Shown piece after piece: positions 730-61,682 of a DNA stretch of 64,000 bases. Numbering within the stretch: the stretch's first letter is position 1; each line of letters begins with the position of its first letter. The notes beneath the pieces are model-generated. The model did no database searches, was not told where the DNA came from, and worked only from the letters and a program-made list of their open reading frames with translations. The position numbers and the translations under genes were made by a program. The DNA lies in contig CAZCCR010000002.1 in assembly GCA_964497425.1 (NCBI GenBank), positions 40,336-104,335 on the forward strand, written 5' to 3'. This DNA is from an uncultured Gaiellales bacterium. GTDB taxonomy: Bacteria; Actinomycetota; Thermoleophilia; BMS3ABIN01.

Positions 730-916
730 ATCACATCCCTTTGGTCGGTAGCACCGGTGATCAGTACTGAACCTGCAACAGAACGCATCTCCCTATACCC
801 CCCCAAGTATTGGCAACGATAGCACGGCGAATCGGAGACTGTCAAACAGGCTGAAGCGCCCCCACCGCTTGTGCTTCTTTGGAACAATACCTTAGCGGGT
901 ATTTGAGACAAGTGGA

Positions 917-946
917 AATCTAACACCCTTTTTCGGTTCTTGTCAA
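917..946 (-). promoter_or_regulatory. Candidate sigma70 promoter for the NarI/DsrM-like gene (TTGACA-17nt-TTAGAT, with TGT just upstream of the -10)
   Basis: TTGACA is the reverse complement of 941-946. The only AT-richer patch in the 365-bp intergenic region. Confidence 0.3.
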
Positions 947-1040
947 TAGCCCGGGCTTTTCCGGGTGCTGCTTCCGTGGATCCCGCTTCCGGGGGAGGGC
1001 TTTTGGAGTGTGGCTTTCTCGGGGTCCGCCGCCGCCTGCG

Positions 1041-1100: not shown

Positions 1101-2525
1101 CTGCCCGATGAAGGAAACCAGACGCTCCGCCCACCGGGGTGAACCCAGGCTGTGCAGGTGGGCATAGGAGGCGAGGATGTTCCCGTGCAGGATGCCGTCG
1201 TGCCTGCCGTCCACGCCGGTGCCGCGTATGACCTTCCAGGCGAAGCCGGCCCCGCTCCCGCCCCGACGGCGCGAATCGCCCCCGGCCCCTTCCAGGCCGG
1301 TGATCTGTGAGTAGTGGAACTCGTGTCCCCGCACCCTGGCCCCGGCATCGAACCAGCCACCCTCTCCCGTAGCTTCCAGCTCCATGTAGCCGTGCCCCTG
1401 CGGTTTCTCGTGCATTAGGACGTCACAGGGGAGGGCGCCGACCATCTCCCGGGAGCCGCCCTTCCAGGTCATGCGCCGCGAGAGGTACATCAGACCGCCG
1501 CATTCCGCGTAGACGGGCATCCCGGCCGCAGCGGCCTCCCGTATCTGCCTGCGCATGCTGCTGTTGGCCTCCAGCTCCTCCATGAACACTTCCGGGAAGC
1601 CGCCTCCTATGAAAAGCCCATCCACCGAAGGCAGCTCGCCGTCGTCCATGGGGCTGAAGGGCACCAGCTCGGCGCCGGCCATTCGCAGGGCCTCCAGGTT
1701 CTCCGGGTAATAGAAGGTGAAGGCCCGGTCACGGGCCAGGCCGAGGCGGACACGGGGCTCCGGCGGCGTGGCGGCGGCCTGCACGCCACCGGCGATGGGC
1801 GGCGCCATCGCCGCTATCTCCCTGATCCGCTCCAGGTCCACATATCCGGTGATGGCGCCGCCCATCGCCTCTATCACCGACTCGGCCGCCAGGTGTTCCC
1901 GCGCCGGCTCCAGGCCGAGATGGCGCATGATTATGCCCATCTCCGAACGGCGGGGGATGGAGCCCACCACCTCGATATCCGTGTACTCCGCGATCGCCGC
2001 CCTGAGTTTCCGTTCGTGACGTGGACCGAAGACCTTGTTCAACACCACGCCTGCGATGGAGATGTCGGGCTCGAACTGCTGAAAGCCCATGAGCAGGGGA
2101 GCGATGCTGCGGTTCATGCTGCGGGTGTCGACGATGAGGACCACCGGCGCTCCCAGCAGCCGCGCCATGTCGGAGCTGCTGCCGCGGCCGTCCACTTCCA
2201 GGCTGTCATAGAGCCCCATGTTTCCCTCGATGATACCGATATCGGCAGGGCCGCTCTTCCCCCCGCCACCTTCCGCGACCGCGCCGGACGCCGCACGGCG
2301 GAAGGAGTCGAGGATGTTGTCCTCTCCCATCATGAACAGGTCCAGGTTGCGGCAGTCGTTGCCGGCTGCTGCGCTCAGCCACATGGGGTCGATGAAATCA
2401 GGCCCCTTCTTGAAGGGCTGCACCTTCAGGCCGGCGTCTCGCAGCGCCCGGCAGAGGCCGGTGCTGAGCGTGGTCTTGCCGGAACTGCGATGAGGACCGG
2501 ATATGAGTATCCTGGGAATCCGCAA
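1095..2525 (-). CDS. CbiA/CobB-family amidase (cobyrinic acid a,c-diamide synthase family; DsrN-like candidate siroheme amidase given context); TTG start
   Basis: 476 aa with an N-terminal P-loop (ISGPHRSSGKTTLSTGLCRAL) and a C-terminal glutamine amidotransferase region, the typical CbiA/CobB architecture. The next gene downstream is NarI/DsrM-like. Confidence 0.8.
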   Translation of the reverse strand: MRIPRILISGPHRSSGKTTLSTGLCRALRDAGLKVQPFKKGPDFIDPMWLSAAAGNDCRNLDLFMMGEDNILDSFRRAASGAVAEGGGGKSGPADIGIIEGNMGLYDSLEVDGRGSSSDMARLLGAPVVLIVDTRSMNRSIAPLLMGFQQFEPDISIAGVVLNKVFGPRHERKLRAAIAEYTDIEVVGSIPRRSEMGIIMRHLGLEPAREHLAAESVIEAMGGAITGYVDLERIREIAAMAPPIAGGVQAAATPPEPRVRLGLARDRAFTFYYPENLEALRMAGAELVPFSPMDDGELPSVDGLFIGGGFPEVFMEELEANSSMRRQIREAAAAGMPVYAECGGLMYLSRRMTWKGGSREMVGALPCDVLMHEKPQGHGYMELEATGEGGWFDAGARVRGHEFHYSQITGLEGAGGDSRRRGGSGAGFAWKVIRGTGVDGRHDGILHGNILASYAHLHSLGSPRWAERLVSFIGQS

Positions 2526-2540
2526 GATCGCCCTTTTATT

Positions 2541-2677
2541 CGGGGACGTACTTAAACTTGTGAAACTTGTGCTGTCATGCGGCTCGTTTCACACAGGTAG
2601 TGCCAAGAGTATAGAAAAAGCATGCATCATAGTGAATTCCGACGCCGGTAAGTCTCACAAGTTTCAGTACGTCCCCG
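2541..2677. repeat. MITE-like element or long hairpin: 24-bp inverted repeat (cggggacgtacttaaacttgtgag-like arms, 22/24 match) flanking ~80 bp, in the 5' leader of the CbiA/DsrN-like gene; a third partial arm copy at 2749-2766 overlaps the rluD stop
   Basis: Left arm at 2541-2571 (also carrying the direct repeat aacttgtg x2). The reverse complement of the right arm at 2653-2677 reads cggggacgtactgaaacttgtgag. Confidence 0.6.
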
Positions 2678-2706
2678 TTTGCCATCCGAAAGCCTGACAT
2701 CAGGCC

Positions 2707-2737
2707 TTGTATAGTGACAAATATACGTTTTGTCAAA
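2707..2737 (-). promoter_or_regulatory. Candidate sigma70 promoter for the CbiA/DsrN-like gene (TTGACA-17nt-TATACA on the minus strand)
   Basis: TTGACA is the reverse complement of 2731-2736, and TATACA of 2709-2714. This places the inverted-repeat element inside a ~175-nt 5' UTR. Confidence 0.4.
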
Positions 2738-2751
2738 TAAGTTTCATTAGT

Positions 2752-3693
2752 TTAAGAACGTCCCCGGAGATGCTGCAGAACGGTGCTGAGGTCATCCGGC
2801 AGCGGTGACTCCACTTCCACCGTCTCGCCCGTGTGTGGGTGGCGGAAACCGAGACGGGCGGCATGGAGGAACTGCCGGCCTATGCCCAGAGCGTCATGGC
2901 GCCTGCCGTACGTGGTATCACCCGCCACCGGGTGGCCGATGGCCGCCAGGTGGACCCTGATCTGATGGGTGCGTCCCGTCTCCAGTTCCACCTCCAGCAG
3001 GGAGTAACCATCATCGCCGCCATGGGCACGGCCCGCGTCTTTCCAGCTCTCCAGGACCCTGAAATGGGTGACGGCGTCGCGGCCCGCATCCCCCCCGACC
3101 GACATCTTCTGGCGATCCGCCCTGTCGCGCCCGACGGGAGCATCTATGGTGCCTTCCGCGGTCTGGAAGCTGCCATGCACCAGGGCGATATAGGTGCGCC
3201 GGACCTCGTGGCGCGAGAGCAAGTCCACCAGTAGCCGATGGGTCTCCGCATCCCGGGCCACCACCAGCAACCCGGAAGTGTCCTTGTCCAGCCGGTGGAC
3301 GATGCCGGGGCGCCGGGGATGCTCCCCGCCCGCCGCGCCGTGGGCCAGCAGGCCGTGGACAAGTGTGCCGCTGTCATGCCCTTTCGCCGGATGGGTGACC
3401 ATACCGGCCGGCTTGTCCACCACCAGCAGCCACCGGTCCTCGTAGGGAATGTCCAGGTCCATCTCTTCCGGTTCGAGCCCCGTCTCCCGGGGCGGCGGCA
3501 GGGTCGCGTCTATCACCTCGCCGGCGCGGAGCCTGTGGTTCTTGCCCCTGGTCTCGCCGTCCACCAGTACCATTCCTTCAGCGATGAGCCGCTGTGCCCT
3601 GGTCCGGGAGCCGACATCGGGCACCGTCGAGAGAAAGCTGTCCAGACGTGTGCCTTCTACTTCCGGAGCTACCTTTATGGTGACACTACTCAC
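2752..3693 (-). CDS. rluD: RluA-family 23S rRNA pseudouridine synthase (RluD-like)
   Basis: N-terminal S4-like domain, catalytic HRLDKDTSGLLVVA motif, 313 aa. Confidence 0.85.
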   Translation of the reverse strand: MSSVTIKVAPEVEGTRLDSFLSTVPDVGSRTRAQRLIAEGMVLVDGETRGKNHRLRAGEVIDATLPPPRETGLEPEEMDLDIPYEDRWLLVVDKPAGMVTHPAKGHDSGTLVHGLLAHGAAGGEHPRRPGIVHRLDKDTSGLLVVARDAETHRLLVDLLSRHEVRRTYIALVHGSFQTAEGTIDAPVGRDRADRQKMSVGGDAGRDAVTHFRVLESWKDAGRAHGGDDGYSLLEVELETGRTHQIRVHLAAIGHPVAGDTTYGRRHDALGIGRQFLHAARLGFRHPHTGETVEVESPLPDDLSTVLQHLRGRS

Positions 3694-4580: not shown

Positions 4581-4906
4581 TCCCCACGGAGGATTCTTCT
4601 CAACCTCTCTTCAGCGTCCCCGGCCGGGACCCCGGCCAACAGGACTATTTTATCACGGGAGCGCTCCCCGCGCCGCAACCTAACCTGGTTCTTCCTCAGC
4701 CCCAGTTCCCGGGCCAGGAACCTCAGCAGCGCCTTGTTCGCCTTGCCCTCCACCGGAGGCGCCTGCAACCGCACCCTCAGCCGGCCGTCATGCTCCCCCA
4801 TGATCCGGTTTTTCTTCGCCCCGGGCGCCACCCTCAGGGCAAGCAGCGCCCCCTCGGGTGACGGCTCCAGCATCCTACCACTTGAAGTTTTTCTCTTCTG
4901 TGTCAA
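4577..4906 (-). CDS. DUF167 (YggU-like) protein
   Basis: 109 aa, RVRLQAPPVEGKANKALLRFLARELG motif typical of YggU/DUF167. The position after divIVA matches the conserved ylm/ygg cluster. Confidence 0.65.
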   Translation of the reverse strand: MTQKRKTSSGRMLEPSPEGALLALRVAPGAKKNRIMGEHDGRLRVRLQAPPVEGKANKALLRFLARELGLRKNQVRLRRGERSRDKIVLLAGVPAGDAEERLRRILRGE

Positions 4907-5911: not shown

Positions 5912-6718
5912 CTATCCCAGTTCGACGGCACGGTTCACGGCTACCTGCACCGAGTCGATGATGGCTGACCTGACCCCGTCCCGCTCCAGCTGGGAGATGC
6001 CGGCGGCGGTGGTGCCCGCGGGTGAAGTGACCACGTGCCTCAGCTCGCTGGGGGAGAGGCCAGCCTCGATCAGCAGCGCCGCCGTTCCGGAAAGCATGGA
6101 GAAGGTCAGCTCCCTCGCCACCGCCCCCGGCAGTCCGGTCATCACGCCGGCGTCCACAAAGGCGTCGGCGATGACCGCCATGAAGCCGGGGCCGCTGCCG
6201 GCGATTGCCGTCGCCGCGGCGAACAGCTTCTCCGGCATGGGCACTACCCGCCCCAGGCCGCTGAACAGCTCGAATACCTGTTCTTCCGTCTCCGGGTCCA
6301 CGTTGCTGCCCGAGGCGAAGCAGATGGTGCCGGCGCCCACCTCCACCGCCACATTGGGCATCAGGCGGAAGACAGGCACGTCTTCGGGGAAGAGCGCTTC
6401 CAGGAAAGCGATGGTGCGGCCTGCCGCCACCGAGGCCAGTATCTTGCCCCTGCCGAACAGTTCCACGGTATCGGCGACGGCGGATTCCACGTCGTTGGGC
6501 TTCACCGCTATCAGCACCAGGTCCGAGCGGCTCGCCAGGTCGACGTTGCCGGTAGCGGCTGCGACCCCCGTCTCCCGGCTGAGTTGTTCCGCCGCCTCCT
6601 CCCGGGCGTCGGCGACGATGATGCGCGACGCCATGGCAGGGTCATGCCTCAGCCAGCCCCTGACGAAGGCCGAGCCGATGTTGCCGCAGCCGATGAGACC
6701 GATCTTCCCGATCTTCAT
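5912..6718 (-). CDS. proC: Pyrroline-5-carboxylate reductase
   Basis: N-terminal Rossmann motif IGLIGCGNIG, 268 aa, P5CR C-terminal dimerisation region. Confidence 0.85.
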   Translation of the reverse strand: MKIGKIGLIGCGNIGSAFVRGWLRHDPAMASRIIVADAREEAAEQLSRETGVAAATGNVDLASRSDLVLIAVKPNDVESAVADTVELFGRGKILASVAAGRTIAFLEALFPEDVPVFRLMPNVAVEVGAGTICFASGSNVDPETEEQVFELFSGLGRVVPMPEKLFAAATAIAGSGPGFMAVIADAFVDAGVMTGLPGAVARELTFSMLSGTAALLIEAGLSPSELRHVVTSPAGTTAAGISQLERDGVRSAIIDSVQVAVNRAVELG

Positions 6719-27502: not shown

Positions 27503-28360
27503 TCACATCTCGTCCGGCAACCCCTCCAGTTCCGCCATGGAGAAGACGGGACCGTCGACGCAGACGTACTCCGGGCCCACGTTGCACCGTCCGCAAAGGC
27601 CGATGCCGCACTTCATCCGCCGCTCCAGTGTAGTGTATATCTGCCCGGGGGAGAAGCCCATCTTCTCCAGGCTCTCCAGCACGTAGCGGATCATCACCGG
27701 CGGGCCGCAGGTCACGGCGATATTGTTCTCCGGCGACGGGCCCTCTTCCTCCAGCACCGCCGGCACCAGGCCCACGCGCCCCTCCCAGTCGGGATGACCC
27801 GTGTCTATGGTGGTGATGAAATCCACGCCACTGCCCTGCTCCCAGTCGCGACAGTCGTCGAGGTAGCAGATGTCCCGGGGCGTGCGGGCGCCGTAGATGA
27901 GCTGCAGGTCGGCGTAGTCTTCACGGTGGTCCAGCAGGTGCAGAAAGAGCGACCGCAGGGGGGCCATGCCGATGCCGCCGCCGATGACCAGGATGCTCTT
28001 GCCTTTCCATAGGTCCACAGGGAAATGGTTGCCCATGGGCGCGCGCACCGTCACCCTGTCCCCAACGGACAGCTCGTGGATGGCGGTGGTGACCACTCCC
28101 GTCTTCATCACCGAGAACTGCAGGTACTCCCGCTCCGACGGCGGCGAGGCGATGGCGAAGGTGGACTCACCAGCGCCGGGGATGCCCAGCTGACCCGTCT
28201 GGCCCGGCAGGAAGCTGAATGACTGCATCAGCTCCCGGTCCTCGAAGGCCACCCGCAACGACTTGATGTTATGGGTCTCCCTGATGATGTCCAGCACCTC
28301 AGCCGTCTCCGGCGTCAACGGCCGGGAGGCCTCCATGCCCTTCCGCGGGATAGTCGACAT
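27503..28360 (-). CDS. flxA: FlxA-like NAD(P)H:flavin oxidoreductase subunit (FAD/NAD-binding plus C-terminal [2Fe-2S]; AsrB/HydG-like)
   Basis: Ferredoxin-reductase-type FAD/NAD fold, C-terminal CGIGLCGRCNV cluster motif. Last gene of the hdr-flx run. Confidence 0.7.
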   Translation of the reverse strand: MSTIPRKGMEASRPLTPETAEVLDIIRETHNIKSLRVAFEDRELMQSFSFLPGQTGQLGIPGAGESTFAIASPPSEREYLQFSVMKTGVVTTAIHELSVGDRVTVRAPMGNHFPVDLWKGKSILVIGGGIGMAPLRSLFLHLLDHREDYADLQLIYGARTPRDICYLDDCRDWEQGSGVDFITTIDTGHPDWEGRVGLVPAVLEEEGPSPENNIAVTCGPPVMIRYVLESLEKMGFSPGQIYTTLERRMKCGIGLCGRCNVGPEYVCVDGPVFSMAELEGLPDEM

Positions 28361-29379
28361 CAGTACTCACCCGCCCTTCTGATCACGTCGCGGATGTCCA
28401 GCCCCACGGGACAGCCGCGGATGCAACGGCCGCAGCCGGTACAGAGGATCGGCCCCTGGCGTGACGGATAGTAGCTGAACTTGTGGCCGATGCGATTGCG
28501 GTAGCGGTGGGCGATGGTCGGACGCGGGTTGTGCCCCGATGTCTCCAGCGTGTAGAGGAAGAACATGCAGGCGTCCCAGCTGCGACAGCGCTCGCCCTCG
28601 CGCCGGCCGGTCATCTCGTCGAACATGTTGAAACAGTAGCATGTGGGACAGGTGAAGGTGCAGTAGCCGCAGGAGACGCAGCGTGCGGTCACCTCGTCCC
28701 AGAAATCCAGGTCGGCGAATATATCACCCGTCAGCTTCTCCTCGAGCTCCTTCATGGGCACCTGGTCGTTGACCGCCAGCGGGGGCGGCTCCAGGTCGCT
28801 CTCCTCCCAGACTCCCAGCTGAAGCAGCTCCTCCCCGCGGGGACTGGACGCCCGCGCCAGGTAGCCGTCTCCGGCGGGGTATAGGATCACGTCCGACCCT
28901 TCGCTCGAGGCCGTGCCCTCCTCCCATGATGAGCAGAAGCAGGCGGCGTCCGCCTGCGTACAGGCCAGGGTGATCACCGTGAGGCCGCGCCGTCTCGAGC
29001 TGTATCCGGGGTCCTGGTATGACTTGCCCGGCGGTGGGTCGAAGAGGGCGTCCAGCACCGTCAGGGCGCGCGCGTCGCAGACGCGCGCGCCGAAGAGGAA
29101 CCTCTCTCCCTCCCCGTACCGCGGATCCGACAGCTCCAGCCGGTCGCCCTCCTCCGTCATGGCGTAACTGAAATCCATCAGCTTCTCCGTCGCCGGCAGC
29201 ACCAGCTCCTTGGCGGAGAGGGTGGTGAAACGCTCCAGTTCCAGGGAGGCGCCGGGCCGCCAGGGCCGGAAGAGGACCGTACCGGCGGCGCCATCCATCT
29301 GCCGCGGCGCCCAGACCTCTCCGCGGTCCGCCAAGGCGGTGAGTAGCCGGTCGATGTCGTCCGTGGCGATATATCTCAT
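28360..29379 (-). CDS. flxB: FlxB-like iron-sulfur subunit (AsrA/HydB-like, two [4Fe-4S] motifs); start approximate
   Basis: CVSCGYCTFTCPTCYC and CTGCGRCIRGCPVG motifs. Confidence 0.65.
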   Translation of the reverse strand: MRYIATDDIDRLLTALADRGEVWAPRQMDGAAGTVLFRPWRPGASLELERFTTLSAKELVLPATEKLMDFSYAMTEEGDRLELSDPRYGEGERFLFGARVCDARALTVLDALFDPPPGKSYQDPGYSSRRRGLTVITLACTQADAACFCSSWEEGTASSEGSDVILYPAGDGYLARASSPRGEELLQLGVWEESDLEPPPLAVNDQVPMKELEEKLTGDIFADLDFWDEVTARCVSCGYCTFTCPTCYCFNMFDEMTGRREGERCRSWDACMFFLYTLETSGHNPRPTIAHRYRNRIGHKFSYYPSRQGPILCTGCGRCIRGCPVGLDIRDVIRRAGEY

Positions 29380-30305
29380 GATTCCCGGTCCCAGATATCC
29401 TTGTCGGGATCGAAGACGAGCATGGGCGGCCTGGCGCCCAGGTCGGCGCCGGCGCTGTAGCCGAACATCTCCTCGATGGCGCGGTTCTGCTCCTGAAGCA
29501 GCAGCATCAGCGGGATGCCGACGGGACAGGCCCGTTCGCACTCGCCACAGCCCGTGCAGCGGCCGGCCAGGTGGCCTACCCGGATCAGCTGGATCATCTC
29601 CGACTGTTTGGCGTCCACGGCGCCGCCGGCCCAGTGGGGCACCTGCGTCTGCATGATGCAGACATCACGGCAGAAACACATGGGGCAGACCTCGCGGCAG
29701 GCATAGCAGCGGATACAGCGCGAGAACTGCTCCCGCCAGAAGACCCGGCGCTCCCGCGGCGTCAGCGAGTCGAACAATCGGCGCAGAGGGTGTCCCGGAC
29801 CCCCGCCCTCAGTCCTGTCCCCCGCCGCCTCGCCGATGACGTGATCGTAGATGTCCGGGTCAGCTTCCAGGCAGTTGTGGCATTTGGGCTGGATGAACAC
29901 TTCCCGTTCCACCTCCCGGCCGTCCACGGTGAGGGAGGCGCCGCCATCTTCGATGGCGGCGCCGTATCCGTAGCGCCGCCATATCTTCTTGACGTCCAGC
30001 ACGCCGCTACAGCCGACGCCGATGACCTCGACCCTCTCACGCTCCACCTCATGCTCGATTATCAGCTCCACCACGCTTCGTGCGTCGCAGCCCTTGGCGA
30101 CGATCCCCACCCGCTTGTCCTTCAGCCGCGGCAGGTGCACCGCCAGGTTGTGGACGCAGGTGCTGTCGAACAGGGCCCGCTCCGCCTCTTCTCCGTCACG
30201 GAAGCGGGCAGGAGCCGCCACCCCGCTGGCGGCATCGGTCTCCCAGCCCAGCACCAGGTCGGTCCTCTCCAGAACCTTCTTTATGACTTCGACCAGTTCG
30301 CTCAT
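29376..30305 (-). CDS. flxC: FlxC-like iron-sulfur subunit (FrhB/AsrA-like, two [4Fe-4S] motifs)
   Basis: CIRCYACREVCPMCFC and CTGCGECERACPVG motifs. Paralogous to the preceding gene. Confidence 0.65.
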   Translation of the reverse strand: MSELVEVIKKVLERTDLVLGWETDAASGVAAPARFRDGEEAERALFDSTCVHNLAVHLPRLKDKRVGIVAKGCDARSVVELIIEHEVERERVEVIGVGCSGVLDVKKIWRRYGYGAAIEDGGASLTVDGREVEREVFIQPKCHNCLEADPDIYDHVIGEAAGDRTEGGGPGHPLRRLFDSLTPRERRVFWREQFSRCIRCYACREVCPMCFCRDVCIMQTQVPHWAGGAVDAKQSEMIQLIRVGHLAGRCTGCGECERACPVGIPLMLLLQEQNRAIEEMFGYSAGADLGARPPMLVFDPDKDIWDRES

Positions 30306-30781
30306 GGCTCTCGCTCTTCCCTGTCGGCAGGTGCCACAGCCGCTGAATCATCAGCAACCGATCCCTTTGCAGTCCCGGCGTAGTCCAGCTTGCCAAGAGG
30401 CCTGACCGCCTCCGTGAAATCCGCCACCGTCTCGGCCCAGCGCGCCCCCTCGGAGGCGCTGACCCAGGTATAGCGGAAACGTTCCGGCTCGATGCCGTAA
30501 ACCTTCACCATACGCTTCAGCAGCTCCAGCCGCCGGCGCGCGTAGAAATTCCCTTCGTTGTAATGGCAGTCGCCGGGATGGCAGCCGCTCACCAACACCC
30601 CGTCCGCCCCCTCCTGGAACGCCTTCAGCACCAGCAGGGGGTTGACCCGGCCTGTGCAGGGCAGGCGCACGATGCGCATCTCCGCCGGCTGGGCCATGCG
30701 GGAGGTGCCGGCCATGTCGGCGCCGGCATAGGAACACCAGTTACAGAGGAATCCCACCAGCTTTATGCCTTCACCGCTCAC
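30302..30781 (-). CDS. mvhD: MvhD-like (FlxD) [2Fe-2S] electron-transfer protein
   Basis: Motif set LCNWCSYAGAD...RLPCTGRV...GCHPGDCHY is characteristic of the methyl-viologen-reducing hydrogenase delta subunit family that partners HdrA. Confidence 0.75.
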   Translation of the reverse strand: MSGEGIKLVGFLCNWCSYAGADMAGTSRMAQPAEMRIVRLPCTGRVNPLLVLKAFQEGADGVLVSGCHPGDCHYNEGNFYARRRLELLKRMVKVYGIEPERFRYTWVSASEGARWAETVADFTEAVRPLGKLDYAGTAKGSVADDSAAVAPADREEREP

Positions 30782-32739
30782 CTGAGCGCCTCCGTCACTT
30801 CCTGGATAAGCTGGTTGTCAGTATAGCCCCTCAGTGATATCACCGATGGCGGGCAGGCCACGTTGCAGAGCCCGCAGCCCTGGCAGAGAGACTCTATCAC
30901 CACCGCCACGTGGCGGCCGTCCCGCAATCCCTGTTCCTCGATGGCATGGTAGGGGCAGACCTCGCGGCATTTGAAACAGCCGATGCAGCGCATGTGGTTG
31001 ACCTCGGCGATCATGGGGCTGGTCTCCAGCTCGTCGCGGGAGAGCAGACCGATCACCTTGGCCGCGGCGGCGCTGGCCTGGGCGACGGTCCCGGGGATAT
31101 CCCTTGGCCCCTGGCAGGCTCCGGCCAGGAAGATACCGCCGGTAGTGGTCTCCACCGGCCGCAGCTTGGGATGGCTCTCGGAGAGGAAGCCGTATCCGTC
31201 GTAGGGGATGTTCAGCTTCTGCGCCAGACCCGTCACCCCTTCGGCGGCGTCGAGCCCGGTGGCCAGCACCACCAGGTCGGCTTCCACTTCCACGTTCTCA
31301 CCCGCCAGCGTGTCCACGCCCATCACCACCAGCTTGCCGTCCCGTGGATAGATCTTGCCCACCCGTCCCCGCAGGTAGATGGCGCCCGCTTCCTTCTGGG
31401 CCCGCCGGTAGAACTCCTCGTAGCCCTTGCCGCCGGCGCGCACGTCCATATAGAAGACGTATGATTGGGAATCGGGGATGTGCTCCTTTGTCAGGATGGC
31501 CTGTTTGGCGATGTACATGCAGCCCACGTTACAGCACAGCGGCCGTCCGATGGACTCGTCCCGGGAACCGACGCAGGAGAGGAACACGACATCTTTCGGC
31601 TCGGCCCCGTCCGAGGGCCGCCGGATATGGCCGCCGGTCGGGCCCGAAGCGGAGAGCATGCGTTCATACTGCATGGAAGTGATGACGTCCGGGTAGAGGC
31701 CGCCGCCGTAATGGGGATAGGCCTGCCGCCAGTCGAACAGCTCATACCCCGTCGCCACCACGATGGCGCCGAACTTCTCCGTGTGCAGTTCGTCCTCCTG
31801 TTCGTAATCCACCGCGTCCGCGGGACAGACCTTCTTGCAGATGCCGCACTTGCCCTTTATGAACAGGCGGCAGTGTTCCTTCCTCAGGGATGCCACCAGG
31901 GGCACGGCCTGGGGGAAGGCGATGGAGATGGCCTTCGATTCGCCAACGCCGGCGTTGAACTCGTCCGGCGCCGGGTTGGGGCACTTCTGCTCGCAGATCT
32001 GGCAGCCGGTGCACTTCTCCTCGTCGACGCAGGTGGCCTTCTTCCTGATGTCCACCTCGAAGTTGCCGATGTAGCCGCGCACCTGCTCCACCTCGCTGTT
32101 GACCATCAGCCTGATGTTCTCATGATGTTTCACTTCCACCATGCGGGGGGTGAGGATGCAGGACGAGCAGTCCAGGGTGGGAAAGGTCTTGTCCAGCCGC
32201 GCCATGTTGCCGCCGATGGTCGGCCCCTTCTCCACCAGGGTGACGGGCATGCCGGCGTCGGCGATGTCCAGCGCCGCCTGGATGCCGGCGACGCCGCCGC
32301 CGATGATCAGCACCTCGCCCGCCACCGGCACGCGGCTGGTGAACAGCGGTGTCTGCTCGCGCACCTTGGCCACGCCCATGGCCATCAGGTCGATGGCCTT
32401 CTCCGTCGCCACGTCCATGTCCGAATGTATCCAGGAGCAGTGCTCGCGGATGTTGACCATCTCCATCATGAAGGGGTTGATGCCAGCCTGGGCGACGGTG
32501 CGCTGGAAGGTGGTCTCGTGCATCCGCGGCGAGCAGGCGGCGATCACCACCCGGTCCAGGGCGTGCTTGTGCGCCGCCGCGACGATGGTGCGCTGTCCCG
32601 GGTCCGAACATGTGTACTGGATGGACTCGGCATGGACCACATCGCGCAGTGACATGGCGGCCTTCACCACCCTGTCGGTGGAGACTGTGGCGGCGATGTT
32701 GGAGCCGCACTGGCAGACGAAGACACCTATGCGCATCAG
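30778..32739 (-). CDS. hdrA: Heterodisulfide reductase subunit A-like flavoprotein (start at MRIGVFVCQCG; the ORF-track N-terminal extension overlaps hdrB)
   Basis: FAD GxGxxG (IIGGGVAGIQAALDIA), several CxxCxxCxxxCP ferredoxin motifs, ~650 aa. Confidence 0.85.
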   Translation of the reverse strand: MMRIGVFVCQCGSNIAATVSTDRVVKAAMSLRDVVHAESIQYTCSDPGQRTIVAAAHKHALDRVVIAACSPRMHETTFQRTVAQAGINPFMMEMVNIREHCSWIHSDMDVATEKAIDLMAMGVAKVREQTPLFTSRVPVAGEVLIIGGGVAGIQAALDIADAGMPVTLVEKGPTIGGNMARLDKTFPTLDCSSCILTPRMVEVKHHENIRLMVNSEVEQVRGYIGNFEVDIRKKATCVDEEKCTGCQICEQKCPNPAPDEFNAGVGESKAISIAFPQAVPLVASLRKEHCRLFIKGKCGICKKVCPADAVDYEQEDELHTEKFGAIVVATGYELFDWRQAYPHYGGGLYPDVITSMQYERMLSASGPTGGHIRRPSDGAEPKDVVFLSCVGSRDESIGRPLCCNVGCMYIAKQAILTKEHIPDSQSYVFYMDVRAGGKGYEEFYRRAQKEAGAIYLRGRVGKIYPRDGKLVVMGVDTLAGENVEVEADLVVLATGLDAAEGVTGLAQKLNIPYDGYGFLSESHPKLRPVETTTGGIFLAGACQGPRDIPGTVAQASAAAAKVIGLLSRDELETSPMIAEVNHMRCIGCFKCREVCPYHAIEEQGLRDGRHVAVVIESLCQGCGLCNVACPPSVISLRGYTDNQLIQEVTEALR

Positions 32740-33617
32740 GCCACCCCCGCCAGCCATCTGTCCAGGTCGGGCCTGACCGCCAGGGCGTCCAGGCCCAGCT
32801 CCTCGGGAGGGATGCCCAGGGCCAGGCCGATGGCCTGGCTGAAATAGAGCACCGGCATCCGCAGCGAGGCGCCGTAGGCGTAATTGATCTGCCCCTGCCG
32901 CAGATCCAGGTTCTGGTGACAGAGGGGACAGGCGGTGACCAGGGCGTCCAGCCCCGTGGACATGGCCACGTCGATGATGCGCCTGCTGGCCTCCAGCACG
33001 ATATCCTTGCGCGCCAGTCCCATGTAGGAGCCGCAGCATTCGGTCTTGAAGGGGAAATGGGGCACCTGGGCGCCCGTGGCCTCCAGCAGCGGCCGCATCT
33101 TGCGGGGGTCCCGCGGACTGTCGAAGCCCATGATGTCCGCGGGCCTGGTCAGCAGGCAGCCGTAATAGGCGCCCAGGCGCACGTTCCGCAGCCGCTCCCC
33201 CGCCCGCCGGCGCAGCTCCTCCGGCGTCACTTCCCGGTTGAGCATCTGCACGATGTTGAGCACCTCGGTCCGGTAGCGCACCTCTTCCCCCAGCAGTTCG
33301 CTGGTCTGCTCCCGGATCCGCTCATCGCCCGCTATCTTGTACTGGGCGTACTTGAGACGGTTGTAGCAGCCGGCGCAGGGGGCCACCACAGCGTCATGGC
33401 CGGCGCCGGCGATATGCAGGTTGCGACCGGGAAGGAGCACGCCCAGGGTCTCCGCCTTGTGATGGGGCGCCGGCGACGCTCCACAGCAGTTCCAGTCCTG
33501 AAGCTCGTCCAGCCGCACGCCCAGCGCCTCCGCCACCTTGCGGAAGGAGATGTCGTATTCCATGGCGCTGCTCTTGAGGGAGCAGCCCGGGTAATATGAA
33601 TAGGGCGTCTTCACCAC
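32736..33617 (-). CDS. hdrB: Heterodisulfide reductase subunit B-like (two CCG domains)
   Basis: YYPGCSL...CCG and CCGS...CPLC motifs. Confidence 0.85.
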   Translation of the reverse strand: MVKTPYSYYPGCSLKSSAMEYDISFRKVAEALGVRLDELQDWNCCGASPAPHHKAETLGVLLPGRNLHIAGAGHDAVVAPCAGCYNRLKYAQYKIAGDERIREQTSELLGEEVRYRTEVLNIVQMLNREVTPEELRRRAGERLRNVRLGAYYGCLLTRPADIMGFDSPRDPRKMRPLLEATGAQVPHFPFKTECCGSYMGLARKDIVLEASRRIIDVAMSTGLDALVTACPLCHQNLDLRQGQINYAYGASLRMPVLYFSQAIGLALGIPPEELGLDALAVRPDLDRWLAGVA

Positions 33618-34330: not shown

Positions 34331-35425
34331 TCAGGGGCGGGACGCGGCTGTGTAGTCGTGCCGGCGCTGGACCGGGTTCCAGCCCGCCGCCTCTATGGCC
34401 CGCACCAGCTCCTCCCTGCCGACCCGGTAACTGACGCCGGCGGCGGCTACCACGTTCTCCTCGATCATGGTGCTGCCCAGGTCGTTGGCGCCGAAGGCCA
34501 TGGCCACCTGGGCGACCTTCAGGCCCTGGGTGACCCATGAGGCCTGAATGTTGTCGACGTTGTCCAGGTAGAGGCGGCTCACCGCCAGGGTCATCAGGTA
34601 GTCGATGCCGCTGGAGCTGGCGGCCCCCTCCATGCGGGTATGTTCGTCCTGGAAGGTCCAGGGGATGAAGGCCCGGAAGCCGCCGGTCTCGTCCTGCAGG
34701 CTGCGGATGCGGCGCATGTGCTCTACCCGGTCGGACAGAGACTCGATGCCGCCGAACATCATCGTCGCCGTGGACCTCAGTCCCGCACGGTGCGCCTGTC
34801 GCATCACGCCCATCCAGGTGTCGCTGTCGATCTTGCGCGGGCTCATCCTCAGCCGTACGCCGTCGGAGAGGATCTCGGCGCCGCCGCCTGGCAGGGAATC
34901 AAGGCCGGCCCGGTGCATGCGCCCGAGCGCCTCCGATACCGGTATGCCACTCACCTGTGCTATGTGGTGAACCTCCGGCGGCGATAGGGAGTGGATGGTG
35001 ATGTCCGGGAAGCGCTGCTTGATACCGGCGAACAGGCCGCAGTAGTAATCGATGTCCAGCTTCGGGTGCAGCCCCCCCTGCATCATGATGCCGGTGCCGC
35101 CCAGCTCGATGGTCTCTTCTATCTTGGTGTATATCTCCTCGTCGCTGAGCAGGTAGCCCTCGCTGGAGCCCAGGGGGCGGTGAAAGGCGCAGAAATCACA
35201 GCCGGTGATGCATATGTTCGTGTAGTTGATGTTGCGGTCGACTACGTAGGTGACATCTCCGCCGGGTACCTTGCGCTGCCGCGCCGCGGCCGCCGCCCGT
35301 CCCACCGGCAGCAGCTGCCGGCTCGCCAGCAGCGCCTCGGCGTCTCCCTCGTCCAGGCGCTCTCCCGCCTCGGCCTTCTCCAGCGCCCGCTCGAGCCCTG
35401 CGTCCGTCACCGGCCGCTCATCCAT
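34331..35425 (-). CDS. Radical-SAM menaquinone (futalosine pathway) enzyme, MqnE/MqnC family
   Basis: CITGCDFCAF radical-SAM cysteine triad, ~360 aa, paralogous to the gene at 36334-37434 and flanking an mqnA-like gene. Confidence 0.75.
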   Translation of the reverse strand: MDERPVTDAGLERALEKAEAGERLDEGDAEALLASRQLLPVGRAAAAARQRKVPGGDVTYVVDRNINYTNICITGCDFCAFHRPLGSSEGYLLSDEEIYTKIEETIELGGTGIMMQGGLHPKLDIDYYCGLFAGIKQRFPDITIHSLSPPEVHHIAQVSGIPVSEALGRMHRAGLDSLPGGGAEILSDGVRLRMSPRKIDSDTWMGVMRQAHRAGLRSTATMMFGGIESLSDRVEHMRRIRSLQDETGGFRAFIPWTFQDEHTRMEGAASSSGIDYLMTLAVSRLYLDNVDNIQASWVTQGLKVAQVAMAFGANDLGSTMIEENVVAAAGVSYRVGREELVRAIEAAGWNPVQRRHDYTAASRP

Positions 35426-36344
35426 CGATGAACTCCAGCTCCGGCGCCGTCGCCGCCTCTCCTATCTCCACCGCCCGGCGGTAAAACCCGTCCAGGCCGC
35501 GACGGTACTCATCCGTGAGGTCATAGCGCAGCTTGCTGAAATAGGAGCGCAGCTGCCCGGGGCTGAAGGGATAGACATCCGCCGCCGCCCTGACCACCTC
35601 ATCCCTGTTCTCCGCGCAATAAGCGATGGAATATCCCAGCCGGTCCTGCACCTCCACCGTCTCACCGGGCCGACGCTGGAAGAAACTACGCCGCACCGCC
35701 CAGAGGGCGAAGACCATGGGCAGGCCGGTGAATCCCTTCCACTCCAGGCCCAGGTCATAACTGAACAGGCCGGTGCCGGCAGCCTCAGCCTCGGTACCGG
35801 CAGTCACGGTCGCCTTGCCGGCGCCGTAATACGCTTCCAGCGCCTGGTCACCGATGAGCAGGACTGCATCGTTGGTCTTGAGCGCCTCCGCCACACTGCC
35901 ATCCATGGGAGTATAGACGGGCTCGATGCCGTGCCTCTGCCTCAGCAGTATCTTCAAGAGCACCACCGAGGTGGCGCTCTGGCGCGTCAGAGCCACGGAC
36001 TCCACCTCTGCCATCGGCCGGCGGGAGACGAGGCGGATGCTGTCCACGGCGCCGTCGGCGGTGATGGAGACGTGGGGGAAGAAGAGCAGCTCATCGGCGT
36101 GGACGCCGCATTCGATGGATGAGACGGGGCTGATGTCCAGCTCCCCCGCCAACAGCTTGCGGTTCAGGTCCGTGGGCACGCCTCCCACCAGCCGGAAACA
36201 GCCCCAGCCCGCTCCCCTTTCCAGGCCGTAGTAAAGGGGATATCCGTTGAGGAACTCGAAATGGCCGATACGGATGGTAGACTGGTCCAGGCCCTCCGTC
36301 CGGCCGCCGGCGGCCCCCGTGCCCTTCTGTTCCTCAGTCCTCAT
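35418..36344 (-). CDS. mqnA: MqnA/MqnD-family menaquinone biosynthesis protein (chorismate dehydratase-like); start approximate
   Basis: IRIGHFEFLNGYPLYYGL N-terminal motif of the futalosine-pathway MqnA/MqnD fold (DUF178). Confidence 0.7.
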   Translation of the reverse strand: MRTEEQKGTGAAGGRTEGLDQSTIRIGHFEFLNGYPLYYGLERGAGWGCFRLVGGVPTDLNRKLLAGELDISPVSSIECGVHADELLFFPHVSITADGAVDSIRLVSRRPMAEVESVALTRQSATSVVLLKILLRQRHGIEPVYTPMDGSVAEALKTNDAVLLIGDQALEAYYGAGKATVTAGTEAEAAGTGLFSYDLGLEWKGFTGLPMVFALWAVRRSFFQRRPGETVEVQDRLGYSIAYCAENRDEVVRAAADVYPFSPGQLRSYFSKLRYDLTDEYRRGLDGFYRRAVEIGEAATAPELEFIDG

Positions 36345-37434
36345 AACGGCGCAAGATGTTGTAGAGGGTGTCCCGTTCCACCGGTACGCGACCGGCATCG
36401 CGGATGAGGCGGATCAGCTCTTCGCGGGTGATGGCCTCCTCCGTCTCGGCGCCGGCGGCATGGGTTATCTTCTCCTCCACCACGGTGCCGTCGATGTCGT
36501 TGACGCCGAAGTGCAGGGATATCTGCGCCAGCTTGACACCGATCATGATCCAGAAAGCCTTGATGTTGCGGAAGTTGTCCAGCATCAGGCGGCTGACGGC
36601 CAGCATCTTCAGGTCGTCGACGCCGGTGGGCGGCGACAGGTCCTGCAGCTCCGTGTTGGCGGGATGGAAGGAGAGGGGGATGAAGCTGCCGAAGCCGCCG
36701 GTCTCGTCCTGCAGCTGCCGAAGCCTGAGCAGATGGTCGATGCGCTCCTCGAGCGTCTCCACGTGGCCGTAGAGCATGGTGGCGTTGGACCTGATGCCGG
36801 CGCGGTGGGCGGTACGCATCACGTCCAGCCAGCCCTGCCCTGATATCTTGCGGCTGCATACCTGGCCGCGGACCCGCTCGGAGAAGATCTCGGCGCCGCC
36901 GCCGGGCATGCTGCCCAGCCCGGCTTCCTTCAGCTCCAGCAGCACCTGCTCGACGGTCTTGCCCGAGCGCCGGGCGAAGAAGGCTATCTCGGAGGCGGTG
37001 AAAGCCTGGATGTGGACCGAGGGGTCCAGACGGTGCAGGGCGGCGATCATCTCCACGTAGTACTCATATGGCAGTGACGGGTGCTCGCCGCCGACTATGT
37101 GCAACTCCGTGATGCCGTCCGCCAGGGAGGCGCGGGCACGGTCCAGCACCTCGTCCAGGGTCATGGTGTAGGCGCCCTCCTCTCCCTCACGGGCGCTGAA
37201 GGCGCAGAAGCGGCAGCTGTTGCCACAGACGTTGGTGTGGTTGATATGACGGTTGTTGACGAAATAGACCTCATCGCCGGCGTCGCGGCGACGCGCCAGG
37301 TCGGCCATGGCGCCAACGCGCAGCAGGTCGGGTGACCGCAGCAGTTCCAGTCCGTCGCCGGCGTCGAGCCGCTCTCCGGCCCTGACCTTCTCCTCGACCC
37401 TGTCCAGAGCCCCGGTGCCGGCATCCACAGCCAT
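36334..37434 (-). CDS. Radical-SAM menaquinone (futalosine pathway) enzyme, MqnC/MqnE family
   Basis: CGNSCRFCAF radical-SAM triad, 366 aa, paralog of 34331-35425. Confidence 0.75.
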   Translation of the reverse strand: MAVDAGTGALDRVEEKVRAGERLDAGDGLELLRSPDLLRVGAMADLARRRDAGDEVYFVNNRHINHTNVCGNSCRFCAFSAREGEEGAYTMTLDEVLDRARASLADGITELHIVGGEHPSLPYEYYVEMIAALHRLDPSVHIQAFTASEIAFFARRSGKTVEQVLLELKEAGLGSMPGGGAEIFSERVRGQVCSRKISGQGWLDVMRTAHRAGIRSNATMLYGHVETLEERIDHLLRLRQLQDETGGFGSFIPLSFHPANTELQDLSPPTGVDDLKMLAVSRLMLDNFRNIKAFWIMIGVKLAQISLHFGVNDIDGTVVEEKITHAAGAETEEAITREELIRLIRDAGRVPVERDTLYNILRRYED

Positions 37435-41614: not shown

Positions 41615-42748
41615 GTGCCGATCACGTATCAGAAGCCGGGGGGCAATACCAGCGGGCTACTTTTCGGGGGAAAGGTGGGAGGTACTTCAAAAGGCGGCGG
41701 TGCGGCATCCGTTCAACGGGCGCAGGCGCCGGACAAGGGCGTCATCTCATCTTGTCTGCCGGGGCTGCTGCTTTGCGCCGCGGTGGCGCTGCCTTCTTTC
41801 GAGCTCTCCCGTTACAACCCGTCCCTGGACGCCCTCGCCCTTTCGCTGATCCTGGGCATGGTGTTGAGGAACGTACTGGGACCGGGCACCGCAGTGACCC
41901 CGGGCGTACGCCTGGCCAGCGCCGTCTTCATCCCGGCCGGCATCATCCTATACGGCACCAGGCTCGATTTCCTGGTGTTCACCGGTCTGCCGGGCTATTC
42001 CATCATCGTCGTCATCGCGGCGTTCACCATGTTCTTCATCGCCATCCTCTCGCTCTCCCACCTGATGGACGTGAACCGGAGTACGGGCCTGCTCATCGCC
42101 TGCGGCTCCGCCATCTGCGGCGCCTCGGCCATCGCGGTGCTGTCACCGGTGGTGAGGGCGCGCGAACGCGACATGTCCATGGCGCTTATCGTCACCACTG
42201 TGGCGGGGCTTACCGGCGCCATGATCTATCCCATCCTGGGCGACTGGTTCTCCCTGCCGGAAAAGGTCTACGGCATCCTCTGCGGTTCCACGCTGCAACA
42301 GACGGGGATAGTGCGCCTTGCGGCTTCGCACATGGGAACGGAAGCGCTGGAGTTCGCCATTCCGGTGAAGATGCTGCGCATCGCCATGCTGGCCCCCACC
42401 GCTGTGGCCCTCGCCACTAGCGCTTCGCTGCAGAGGAACGCGGGCCCGGGCGACGACCGTTCCGCCAGGGCGCTGCAGGCGCTGAAGCGGGCCTGGTTCA
42501 TACCGATCTTCGTGGCTGTGGCGCTGGTGTTCTCCTTCGCGGGCGGAGCAGTGGAGATCCGCGAGTCCTTCAAGCCTTTCGCCACCATCGCCCTCTCAAT
42601 GGCGCTGGCCAGTATCGGCCTCAGGGTCGACCTGGGCTCCATCAGGGCCATGGGCTCACGGCCGCTGCTGCTGGGCTTCGCCGGCTGGGCGCTGGTGGGT
42701 TCCGTAATACTGGCCGCGCTGGTCATACTTGCGGGAGCGCTCAATTGA
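41615..42748 (+). CDS. YeiH-family (UPF0324) putative sulfate-exporter-type membrane protein; true start probably downstream of 41615
   Basis: About ten TM helices, glycine-rich repeated halves typical of the YeiH/Cons_hypoth698 family. Confidence 0.6.
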   Translation: MPITYQKPGGNTSGLLFGGKVGGTSKGGGAASVQRAQAPDKGVISSCLPGLLLCAAVALPSFELSRYNPSLDALALSLILGMVLRNVLGPGTAVTPGVRLASAVFIPAGIILYGTRLDFLVFTGLPGYSIIVVIAAFTMFFIAILSLSHLMDVNRSTGLLIACGSAICGASAIAVLSPVVRARERDMSMALIVTTVAGLTGAMIYPILGDWFSLPEKVYGILCGSTLQQTGIVRLAASHMGTEALEFAIPVKMLRIAMLAPTAVALATSASLQRNAGPGDDRSARALQALKRAWFIPIFVAVALVFSFAGGAVEIRESFKPFATIALSMALASIGLRVDLGSIRAMGSRPLLLGFAGWALVGSVILAALVILAGALN

Positions 42749-59774: not shown

Positions 59775-59829
59775 TCTTATTATACGAGACTGTGCGAAGG
59801 CCCCCTCTTGTGCAAGAGGGAGCCTTCGT

Positions 59830-60228
59830 TTAGCAAGCCTGTAAGCCGGATTTTGTTCTATGCGGCCATCTATCTGGGAAGGACGTCGCCGCCCTCCTCA
59901 AGCAGCCTACCCGAGGGCCGGGCGAGCAACCCGATAGCACCCTCCTATTTGGCCTTGCACCGGGTGGGGTTTACCTGGCAGACGTGTCACCACGCCTCCG
60001 GTGCGCTCTTACCGCACCTTTTCACCCTTACGTGCCGGCGCCGGGGAGACATGCCCCCCGCCACCTAGCCCGCGGTCTGTTTTCTGTGGCACTTGCCTGC
60101 GGGTTTCCCCGACTGGGCGTTACCCAGCACCCTGCTCTGTGGTGTCCGGACTTTCCTCTCCGCCTCAGTTCTTGCCTCCGCCCTAAAAGAGAGCCAGAAA
60201 CAGCGCGGAGCGACCGCTCGGCTTGCAT
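59830..60228 (-). ncRNA. rnpB: RNase P RNA, bacterial type A
   Basis: Minus-strand sequence contains GAGGAAAGUCCGGACACCACAGAGCAGGGUGCUGGGUAACGCCCAG (CR-I/P4) and AGGGUGAAAAGGUGCGGUAAGAGCGCACC (CR-II/III). It also has GCAAGGCCAAAUAGG, ACAGAAC..CCGGCUUACAGG (CR-V), and P1 pairing GCAAGCC/GGCUUGC at the ends. Strong colinearity with E. coli M1 RNA. No real ORF covers it. Confidence 0.9.
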
Positions 60229-60256
60229 ATCTATTTTACCAGCACAGGGGGCATGT

Positions 60257-61593: not shown

Positions 61594-61682
61594 GTCGGAG
61601 TGGCGGAATCTGGTAGACGCGCTAGGTTGAGGGCCTAGTGAGCCAATGGCTCATGGGGGTTCAAGTCCCCCCTCCGACACCA
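61594..61682 (+). tRNA. tRNA-Leu (anticodon GAG), class II with long variable arm, encoded CCA
   Basis: Acceptor stem GTCGGAG/CTCCGAC, anticodon stem CTAGG/CCTAG with loop TTGAGGG, 16-nt variable arm, T-arm GGGGG-TTCAAGT-CCCCC, then ACCA. Confidence 0.9.

Follow-up and report, generated by a model that had tools for sequence, protein, structure and literature searches.

Inverted repeat units upstream of dsrN in an uncultured Gaiellales bacterium: a locus-specific family evolving in concert, with a possible role as an RNA duplex

The Correia elements of Neisseria are MITEs, or transposable elements of the miniature inverted-repeat type, that are transcribed into hairpins sensitive to RNase III (PMC2649163), and RNase III stems flank the 16S and 23S rRNA in rRNA operons, as described in PMC6582327. 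Inverted repeats also delimit invertons, which are reported to measure usually less than 300 bases and have been predicted in Actinobacteria (PMC11602134). Here, we describe inverted repeat units found in 64,000 nt of contig CAZCCR010000002.1 (positions 40,336 to 104,335; assembly GCA_964497425.1) from an uncultured Gaiellales bacterium. This whole stretch is referred to as the window, and coordinates given without a locus name refer to it. The units lie in and beside the 226-nt spacer between two minus-strand genes, rluD (2752-3693), encoding an RluA-family 23S rRNA pseudouridine synthase, and dsrN (1095-2525), which starts with TTG and encodes a cobB/cbiA-family a,c-diamide synthase (TIGR00379, 461 bits). 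The spacer has a GC content of 0.44, compared to 0.64 for the window. The repeats are real, locus-specific, shared with two related species and evolving in concert. As to their role, we favour, with a probability of roughly one in three, an RNA duplex next to the dsrN ribosome-binding site that would act on the processing or stability (RNase III-type) of transcripts containing both arms.

The two species sharing the units, which contain the two closest DsrN relatives, are represented by locus L004 (ENA SONG20 scaffold_821) and locus L005 (GCA_024275795.1). Like Correia elements, the window element measures about 100-150 bp, has inverted ends of about 26-28 nt, lies in a gene leader with possible promoter elements and is predicted to yield a long hairpin that RNase III would cut or bind. 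Correia elements, however, are mobile, dispersed in many copies and equipped with a conserved IHF-binding core, whereas here a single locus without target duplication is involved, and the arms of L004 and L005, separated by 1.15 kb, surround a housekeeping gene. The latter arrangement resembles the rRNA stems in that complements at least 1 kb apart flank a complete gene on a transcript predicted to be polycistronic and form a long duplex. The differences are that the rRNA stems enclose an rRNA, while the enclosed sequence here is an mRNA gene (rluD, together with the dsrN promoter), that cleavage is a prediction, and that the arms of the window enclose only 81-170 nt.

Repeat units and promoter-like sites in the window

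Three copies of one unit, all on the minus strand, were found. The right (3') arm, R3 (2541-2568; sense strand AAGTTTCACAAGTTTAAGTACGTCCCCG), ends 15 nt before the TTG of dsrN and 5 nt before its AAGGG Shine-Dalgarno (SD) sequence; the translation start region as a whole (2523-2536, minus strand) consists of an SD-like AAAGGGC and the TTG at 2525-2523. The best partner of R3 is the left arm R2 (2650-2677; sense strand CGGGGACGTACTGAAACTTGTGAGACTT), which matches it at 26 of 28 positions (93% complementary, with one G-A mismatch and one G·U). A second left-arm copy, R1 (2739-2766; core CGGGGACGT), is located 170 nt from R3 and is complementary to it at 25 of 28 nt (89%). R1 and R2 are direct repeats 89 nt apart, with 83% identity over 29 nt. 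The core of R1 encodes the last rluD codons, and the rluD stop codon TAA (2752-2754) falls inside the unit. In and just past R3, the 9-mer AAACTTGTG occurs twice in tandem (2554-2571), corresponding to two TTNAAC-like sub-repeats that permit a second pairing register (2561-2571 with 2656-2666).

The three copies are genuine and far beyond chance. The best inverted 28-mer match reached 26/28 compared to no more than 20/28 when the region was shuffled 200 times, and a 19-mer of the unit, allowing up to three mismatches, matched solely these three sites in 64 kb, where 0.02 would be expected by chance and none of 100 shuffles gave three matches. The initial annotation of this DNA had described near-perfect inverted arms of 24 bp around some 80 bp, a tandem repeat in one arm and a third copy across the end of rluD. 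All of this was confirmed, with an enclosed segment of 81 nt (2569-2649, minus strand) and arms that proved longer than claimed (28 nt each), and given how far the match exceeds the shuffle maximum, the description was correct and, if anything, understated.

That annotation offered a MITE as one identity for the element, which in this case would be a non-autonomous element of 137 bp (2541-2677) inserted in the dsrN leader. Its size, 28-nt terminal inverted repeats, low GC content and leader location do resemble Correia-type MITEs (PMC2649163). Contrary to what would be expected of such an element, only the three units described above exist in about 74 kb of the source contig (the window plus 10 kb more), and an nhmmer profile of all units, searched against about 90 loci of relatives (approximately 800 kb) and the window, detected solely this locus in three organisms. 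Furthermore, searches of viral contigs and plasmids gave no units, the arms are not flanked by a visible target-site duplication, one copy coincides with ancestral lspA coding sequence, and arms placed 1.15 kb apart around rluD, as in L004 and L005, are unlike a miniature transposon. The MITE reading is consequently unsupported and we consider it very improbable, whereas restriction of the units to one locus fits a local cis element. A pattern scan of a metagenome collection gave three single chance matches, all in coding genes (infB and a greA-like gene); the source contig was not among the matches, and the scan is therefore no test of copy number in the source organism. The chance matches can be explained by a 'GDVLKL' stretch that the repeat unit encodes in a 64-aa ATG open reading frame, probably spurious, running antisense across R3, the loop and R2 (2503-2697, plus strand).

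Two promoter-like sites on the minus strand are interspersed with the units. P1 (2708-2736; TTGACA-17-TATACA, with the -35 at 2736-2731 and the -10 at 2713-2708), read from the sequence, is located between R1 and R2, whereas P2 (2608-2636; TTCACT-17-TATACT), found by a promoter scan and matching the consensus at 9 of 12 positions, is located between R2 and R3, in the 81-nt segment. The candidate promoter proposed earlier at about 2707-2737 is thus readable on the minus strand as P1, but the scan flagged in its place an overlapping ATGAAA-16-TATATT at 2747-2720. From the predicted starts, P1 transcripts would contain R2 and R3, and P2 transcripts would contain R3 without a left arm. No canonical intrinsic terminator was found by scanning the sense strand from the left arms to dsrN in the window, L004 and L005; a small hairpin of the window (AAGGCCUGA/UCAGGCUUU; 2689-2708, minus strand) is followed by UUU only and failed the terminator scan. 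An operator-like palindrome, TGACAAA-N7-TTTGTCA (2715-2735), overlaps the P1 -35 and spacer, and is not conserved in L004 or L005.

Several known classes of site were considered for the units and rejected. A sigma-54 promoter (TGGCAC-N5-GTGTG) lacks the -12 GC, and Actinobacteria are not known to possess sigma-54. An ECF-type match at R2 (TGAAAC-N16-CGTC) has no counterpart at R1 or in the relatives, and attC, dif and hix-type recombination sites do not apply to units that have neither GTTRRRY cores nor an internal dyad. The resemblance to a DnaA box or a parS half-site is too weak, and the likeness to helix 69 of 23S rRNA, on which RluD acts, is limited to low-information UAAC motifs, so that mimicry of this substrate was dropped as well.

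Units in related genomes and their concerted evolution

The DsrN proteins of L004 and L005 share 80% identity with that of the window, and 87% with one another. The units of L004 (GGGACGTTGGTTAACGAGTTAA) and L005 (GGGACGTTGGTTCACAAAGTTCAATAAC) are of the same type as those of the window (GGGACGTACTTAAACTTGTGAAACTT), with a GGGACGT core and, after it, two TTNAAC-like sub-repeats spaced by 8-9 nt. In all 12 units of the three species the core, GGGACG(T/C), is constant, while the remainder has diverged. Since the window units are about 45% identical to those of L004 and L005 outside the 7-8-nt core, their homology rests on the core, position and architecture. Two or three direct copies are present at the lspA end and in the lspA-rluD spacer of L004 and L005, and inverted copies, one in L004 and two in L005, lie just upstream of dsrN. 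The resulting arms are perfect over 24/24 nt in L004 (4779-4802 and 5956-5979, 1153 nt apart), and in L005 comprise 35 perfect nt within a 63-nt pair (4699-4761 and 5924-5986, 1162 nt apart), and in both they enclose the whole of rluD and the rluD-dsrN spacer with the dsrN promoter.

The placement of the units is conserved. The distance from the end of the right arm to the dsrN TTG is 12-21 nt in each of the three genomes. Each also has a predicted dsrN promoter between its arms (in the window, P2 and P1), and the copies beside the dsrN ribosome-binding site read ...ACGTCCC, with two or three copies in the opposite orientation farther upstream. In each case the first left copy also overlaps the final codons of an upstream gene, namely rluD in the window and lspA in the other two. 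The predicted promoter that L004 and L005 have between their arms is a clade-wide extended -10 element, GTG(C/T)AA(G/A)AAT, whereas the window organism lacks this element and has P1 and P2 inside the R1-R3 bracket. An extended -10-like C(G/A)TG(C/T)AA(G/A)AATA precedes dsrN at 5836-5845 in L005 and 5893-5902 in L004, and the same motif is found before dsrN in L007, L008, L013-L015, L019, L020, L029 and L090-L093. It is close to the ATG in L013, L014, L015, L020 and L029, where the dsrN mRNA would be leaderless.

The presence of inverted repeats of 24-35 nt on both sides of a predicted promoter directly upstream of a gene, in all three genomes, is a likeness to invertons (PMC11602134, PMC10028968). 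A distant recombinase could flip the inter-arm segment and switch the dsrN promoter on or off, making it a phase-variable promoter for a dissimilatory sulfite-reduction gene, and the conserved asymmetric core could be the recombinase site. An inversion would involve 81 or 170 bp of the window and, in the relatives, 1.15 kb with rluD. However, a single orientation was present in the consensus sequences of four independent assemblies of the window organism (samples 3300023444, 3300039233, 3300038380 and 3300023507), and no recombinase was found in the gene calls extending 10 kb to each side, nor in 27 Pfam-scanned window proteins. In addition, 81 bp is very short for an inversion, and a flip in L004 or L005 would carry the housekeeping gene rluD along. 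Promoter inversion is accordingly judged improbable.

An alternative that takes the constant core as its starting point is that the units are operator sites, with a regulator recognising the GGGACGT core and the sub-repeats spaced by 8-9 nt. Binding to copies between promoter and start would act as a roadblock, and the upstream copies would be bound cooperatively, possibly by looping. In favour of this, the core is conserved in 12 of 12 units while the rest diverges, and the units form tandem arrays (spaced by 37-42 nt in L004 and L005, and by 89 nt in the window) on both sides of the predicted promoters, with R1 ending 2 nt upstream of the P1 -35 and the right units at approximately +33 to +135 of the internal promoters. 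A search of 10 kb to each side and of the sampled window genes, however, gave no candidate regulator gene, and no unit is present at the strongly conserved dsrM promoters or elsewhere in the dsr cluster. Operator arrays are also not normally 100% identical over 28-35 nt within a genome yet different between genomes. Finally, the units lack dyad symmetry, which the DosR/DevR family, with its GGGAC half-site, needs. The DosR/DevR box is a 20-bp palindrome (TTSGGGACTWWAGTCCCSAA); the units match it at no more than 15 of 20 positions, through one half-site only, and a DosR/DevR-type operator was rejected since no GGGAC-N3-5-GTCCC dyad was present in the window, L001, L004 or L005. Taken together, a role as operators appears unlikely.

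Conservation of the arms in relatives, on which the initial annotation had made its proposal depend, extends to L004 and L005 and is absent from all other relatives examined. Other relatives, with a DsrN identity of 72-79%, likewise have no units. Scanning 27 dsrN loci for inverted repeats gave no additional family members, and no further unit-bearing species emerged from the contigs of P0004, P0007, P0008, P0124, P0128 and P0121 or from a search with the unit-encoded LspA tail. The family has either been lost several times or arose separately in the window and L004/L005 lineages. In L004 and L005, unit A lies within the codons of the LspA C-terminal tail. LspA tails of equal length and ending were found in L093 (...SESAPSRNSITEP), P0244 (...SESVPSHSSIAEP) and L005 (...KRDVGSQSSITEP), the length and stop being shared and the final residues reading ...SRNSITEP in L093 and ...SQSSITEP in L005. 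As L093 and P0244 have no units, the repeats appear to have been built from, or to have overwritten, local sequence.

Within each genome the arms are near-identical, while they differ between genomes. Covariation was assessed in an alignment that combined each species' best arm pair with one strain variant and the C/C' pair of L005, and in which 94% of the cells were paired and 14 of 24 pairs had changed on both sides. None of 500 shuffles reached this level, and slid registers were only 31-47% paired. In L004, the B/B' pair has common changes that copy A lacks, and the extra copies (A and C in L004, C/C' in L005) are decaying. The same tendency is seen at the population level. Over 12 kb, the assemblies of samples 3300023444 and 3300039233 show no difference, whereas sample 3300038380 has one difference in 2,382 nt and sample 3300023507 has three in 4,412 nt; in each of the latter two, one difference is a single-nucleotide polymorphism (SNP) in R2 at 2654, the sole SNP found inside any unit among these assemblies. 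This change (sense G to A) converts a G·U pair with R3 into A-U, after which R2 matches R3.

Predicted RNA pairing at the dsrN start

The leader RNA of the window was predicted to fold into a hairpin of 28 bp (-71.8 kcal/mol, z = -5.05), which agrees with the long hairpin close to the TTG anticipated by the initial annotation, and the 1.2-kb long-range helix of L005 is present in both the minimum free energy and the centroid structures. Duplexes of 24-63 bp are standard substrates of RNase III. The predicted duplexes reach about two helical turns or more, at 28 bp in the window (26 of them Watson-Crick or G·U), a perfect 24 bp in L004 and, in L005, 63 bp that include a perfect stretch of 35 bp. 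We infer from this arrangement that the element would act in RNA: a transcript begun upstream of the left arm, either by read-through from lspA and rluD or at P1 in the window, would carry both arms and fold into a near-perfect duplex of 24-63 bp ending 3-15 nt from the dsrN SD. RNase III would cut such a message, or it would otherwise be handled differently, compared to the right-arm-only transcripts from the inter-arm promoter, and this would tune dsrN expression or make it independent of the housekeeping operon upstream. In favour of this scheme are the match beyond chance, the perfect arms of L004 and L005, the covariation of the arms, the SNP that turns G·U into A-U, the predicted folds, the lack of a canonical terminator between left arms and dsrN, and the predicted promoter between the arms.

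The right arm would in this scheme be an anti-SD element and the left arm a decoy. The R3 core, CGUCCC, can pair with GGGCG in the dsrN start region, with a pairing probability between core and SD of 0.32-0.54 in short leaders of the window and L005, and the core may persist because it is complementary to the dsrN SD region (GGAGGCG or AGGGCG). Similar anti-SD pairings are known from the UCCCC motif in the 3' untranslated region of S. aureus icaR, where the pairing is cut by RNase III, and from the E. coli rpoS leader, which is opened by small RNAs. As in these cases, a C-rich sequence upstream of the SD can pair with it and a third complement could compete, but the competing helix is far longer here (24-63 bp) and the change in SD accessibility is inconsistent across the three genomes.

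Several observations weigh against the RNA duplex. Only two one-sided (G·U) changes were seen in the covariation alignment compared to 23 two-sided cells, and none of the seven mismatches in the 63-nt arms of L005 is G·U. With so few G·U intermediates, covariation does not separate RNA pairing from DNA copying such as quasipalindrome template switching, and the mirrored changes look more like DNA-level copying than slow compensatory RNA evolution. The pairing probability between core and SD is 0 in L004. When own-promoter and read-through transcripts of the three genomes were compared by partition-function modelling, the probability of the SD being unpaired without and with the left arms was 0.63 and 0.63 in the window, 0.28 and 0.25 in L004, and 0.30 and 0.10 in L005. 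As this effect is not consistent, sequestration of the SD by the long helix as a translational switch is not supported; conservation of the core alone across lineages would make sense if it had an anti-SD role, but such a role is not borne out by the modelling. Furthermore, a plain duplex would not need a constant 7-nt core in 12 units, a feature better suited to a protein with sequence specificity, and the enclosure of rluD in the relatives but not in the window is without clear functional logic. Finally, the distribution is patchy: L093 groups with L004 and L005 by RluD (77-80% identity), the DsrN N-terminus (89-90%) and the LspA tail, yet has no units, so the element is dispensable or recent.

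A possible explanation for some of these points is that the repeats are a functionless by-product, in which an inverted or tandem duplication of local DNA, with the lspA 3' end as its source in L004 and L005, is kept near-perfect by template switching during replication. Quasipalindrome template switching corrects imperfect inverted repeats towards perfect complementarity, and an SNP that makes one arm match the other is the signature of such arm-templated mutation. The segregating SNP that makes R2 identical to R3 and the substitutions mirrored in both arms, almost without G·U intermediates, fit this process, as do the patchy phyletic distribution and the decay of the extra copies. The occupation of ancestral LspA C-terminal tail codons by unit A also makes the other copies look like duplicates of local DNA. 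Quasipalindrome mutagenesis is, however, a mutational mechanism rather than a function, and leaves the conserved core and the position near the dsrN start unexplained. The position, orientation and core of the right arm have been kept beside the dsrN SD at 80% DsrN identity, where intergenic DNA is otherwise unalignable. Moreover, L004 and L005, at 87% DsrN identity, have perfect arms 1.15 kb apart with differing sequences, which would need continuous correction across a distance where template switching can be expected to be inefficient. A mere by-product is for these reasons regarded as unlikely.

A structured cis-regulatory RNA, the other identity suggested in the initial annotation, accordingly stays the most plausible reading with respect to the predicted duplex, whereas the translational switch is unsupported by the modelling. 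The possibility of a cobalamin riboswitch, which had also been raised, was excluded, as no Rfam family, cobalamin included, matched the region at the gathering threshold, and at E<=10 just three chance-level eukaryotic or archaeal matches appeared, all outside the element. More speculatively, and with rather low odds, the repeats could be a device that reads where a transcript started, with an anti-SD-like arm in the dsrN leader and decoy complements at the 3' end of the upstream housekeeping gene. Read-through and own-promoter transcripts would then get different fates via RNase III cutting or release of the ribosome-binding site, and the window and L004/L005 lineages would either have kept the device while its position moved or have invented it twice. 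The remaining probability falls to something else.

The wider dsr locus and its control

Upstream of dsrN lies the end of the cell-division block (dcw-sepF-divIVA-lspA-rluD), with ftsZ, sepF, divIVA, a gene for a DksA/TraR zinc-finger protein, lspA and, as the last gene, rluD. Downstream, dsrN is the first gene of the cluster dsrN-dsrM-dsrC-dsrK-(133 aa)-dsrO-dsrP-dsrA-dsrB-(83 aa, dsrD-like), and it is because of these dsrM-dsrC-dsrK-dsrO-dsrP-dsrA-dsrB genes that the cobB/cbiA-type gene is identified by context as DsrN. The spacer therefore marks where a housekeeping operon meets a dissimilatory sulfite reductase cluster. An identical DsrN-like protein is present on further JGI contigs, where the neighbouring gene calls reveal the locus, and the named relatives are Thermoleophilia, Actinomycetota and Candidatus Aquicultor metagenome-assembled genomes (MAGs).

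The dsrN-dsrM spacer contains a block of about 230 nt with 80% mean identity across seven species, which makes it far more conserved than the rluD-dsrN spacer. It is located at approximately 730-965 (minus strand) in the window, at 11560-11796 in L001, 7375-7622 in L004 and 7420-7669 in L005, and is also present in L007, L008, L089 and L090. The block includes two consensus-like promoters, GCTATTGACAAG...GGGTGTTAGATT and GTTTGACAG...GTGCTATCGT, each followed by a constant ATAC-N8-GTAT block (AATACCCGCTnAGGTATT and AATACTTnGGGGGGTAT, respectively), and these two blocks are mutually complementary in the alifold consensus. No Rfam match was obtained for the dsrN-dsrM block. The genes from dsrM-dsrC onwards thus probably have their own conserved promoter, leader or operator, apart from dsrN. 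A GC-rich hairpin (GGCCCGGCCCGCC...GGCGGGCCGGGCC) directly after dsrC (L001 12940-12990; L004 8763-8815; L005 8808-8860) and a conserved GCAGTGGTTCTnnnGGAnTGTGAAAGGAnATG ahead of dsrK suggest that transcripts are processed or terminated at a point within the dsr cluster.

Immediately upstream of dsrN, short tandem repeat arrays of other kinds are present in further lineages, among them a Candidatus Aquicultor MAG and MAGs related to it, at approximately 3900-4000 in L025 and L028, 3800-3990 in L032, 3850-3990 in L021/L022 and 270-320 in L026. Examples are GGAACTC/GGAAACTGGGAACT runs, CCGCAACCCGTAACCCGAAACCC, GGCCTTTTGGC / AGCCAAT repeats and three copies of GCTGACA. Repeat-rich regions upstream of dsrN may be a general feature of the group.

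Elsewhere in the window, a set of redox genes (27503-33039, minus strand) encodes a DHOD-B-type NAD/FeS subunit, a Fer4_22 protein and a 753-aa HdrA-like flavoprotein with 4Fe-4S domains, and menaquinone genes of the futalosine pathway (34331-37434) are found nearby; together these are possibly electron-transfer partners of the sulfite-reduction pathway. The window also includes a bacterial RNase P RNA of class A (59826-60229, minus strand; 293 bits), a tRNA gene (61594-61679, plus strand) and an orphan HAMP-GAF-HisKA histidine kinase without an adjacent response regulator (42745-44703, plus strand).

The control of dsr genes in uncultured sulfite- or sulfate-reducing Actinomycetota, which are represented by subsurface and sediment metagenomes, is almost unknown. 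For annotation, the message is that the element upstream of dsrN is neither a mobile element nor a riboswitch. Should the repeats prove to be functionless, they would be a clean natural case of inverted repeats kept perfect by arm-templated mutation, with a segregating SNP included. If, on the other hand, the RNA duplex is true, the locus would be a compact mRNA case of kilobase-range pairing around a whole gene, an arrangement hitherto familiar mainly from rRNA operons, which would separate a respiratory gene from the cell-division and housekeeping operon upstream of it.

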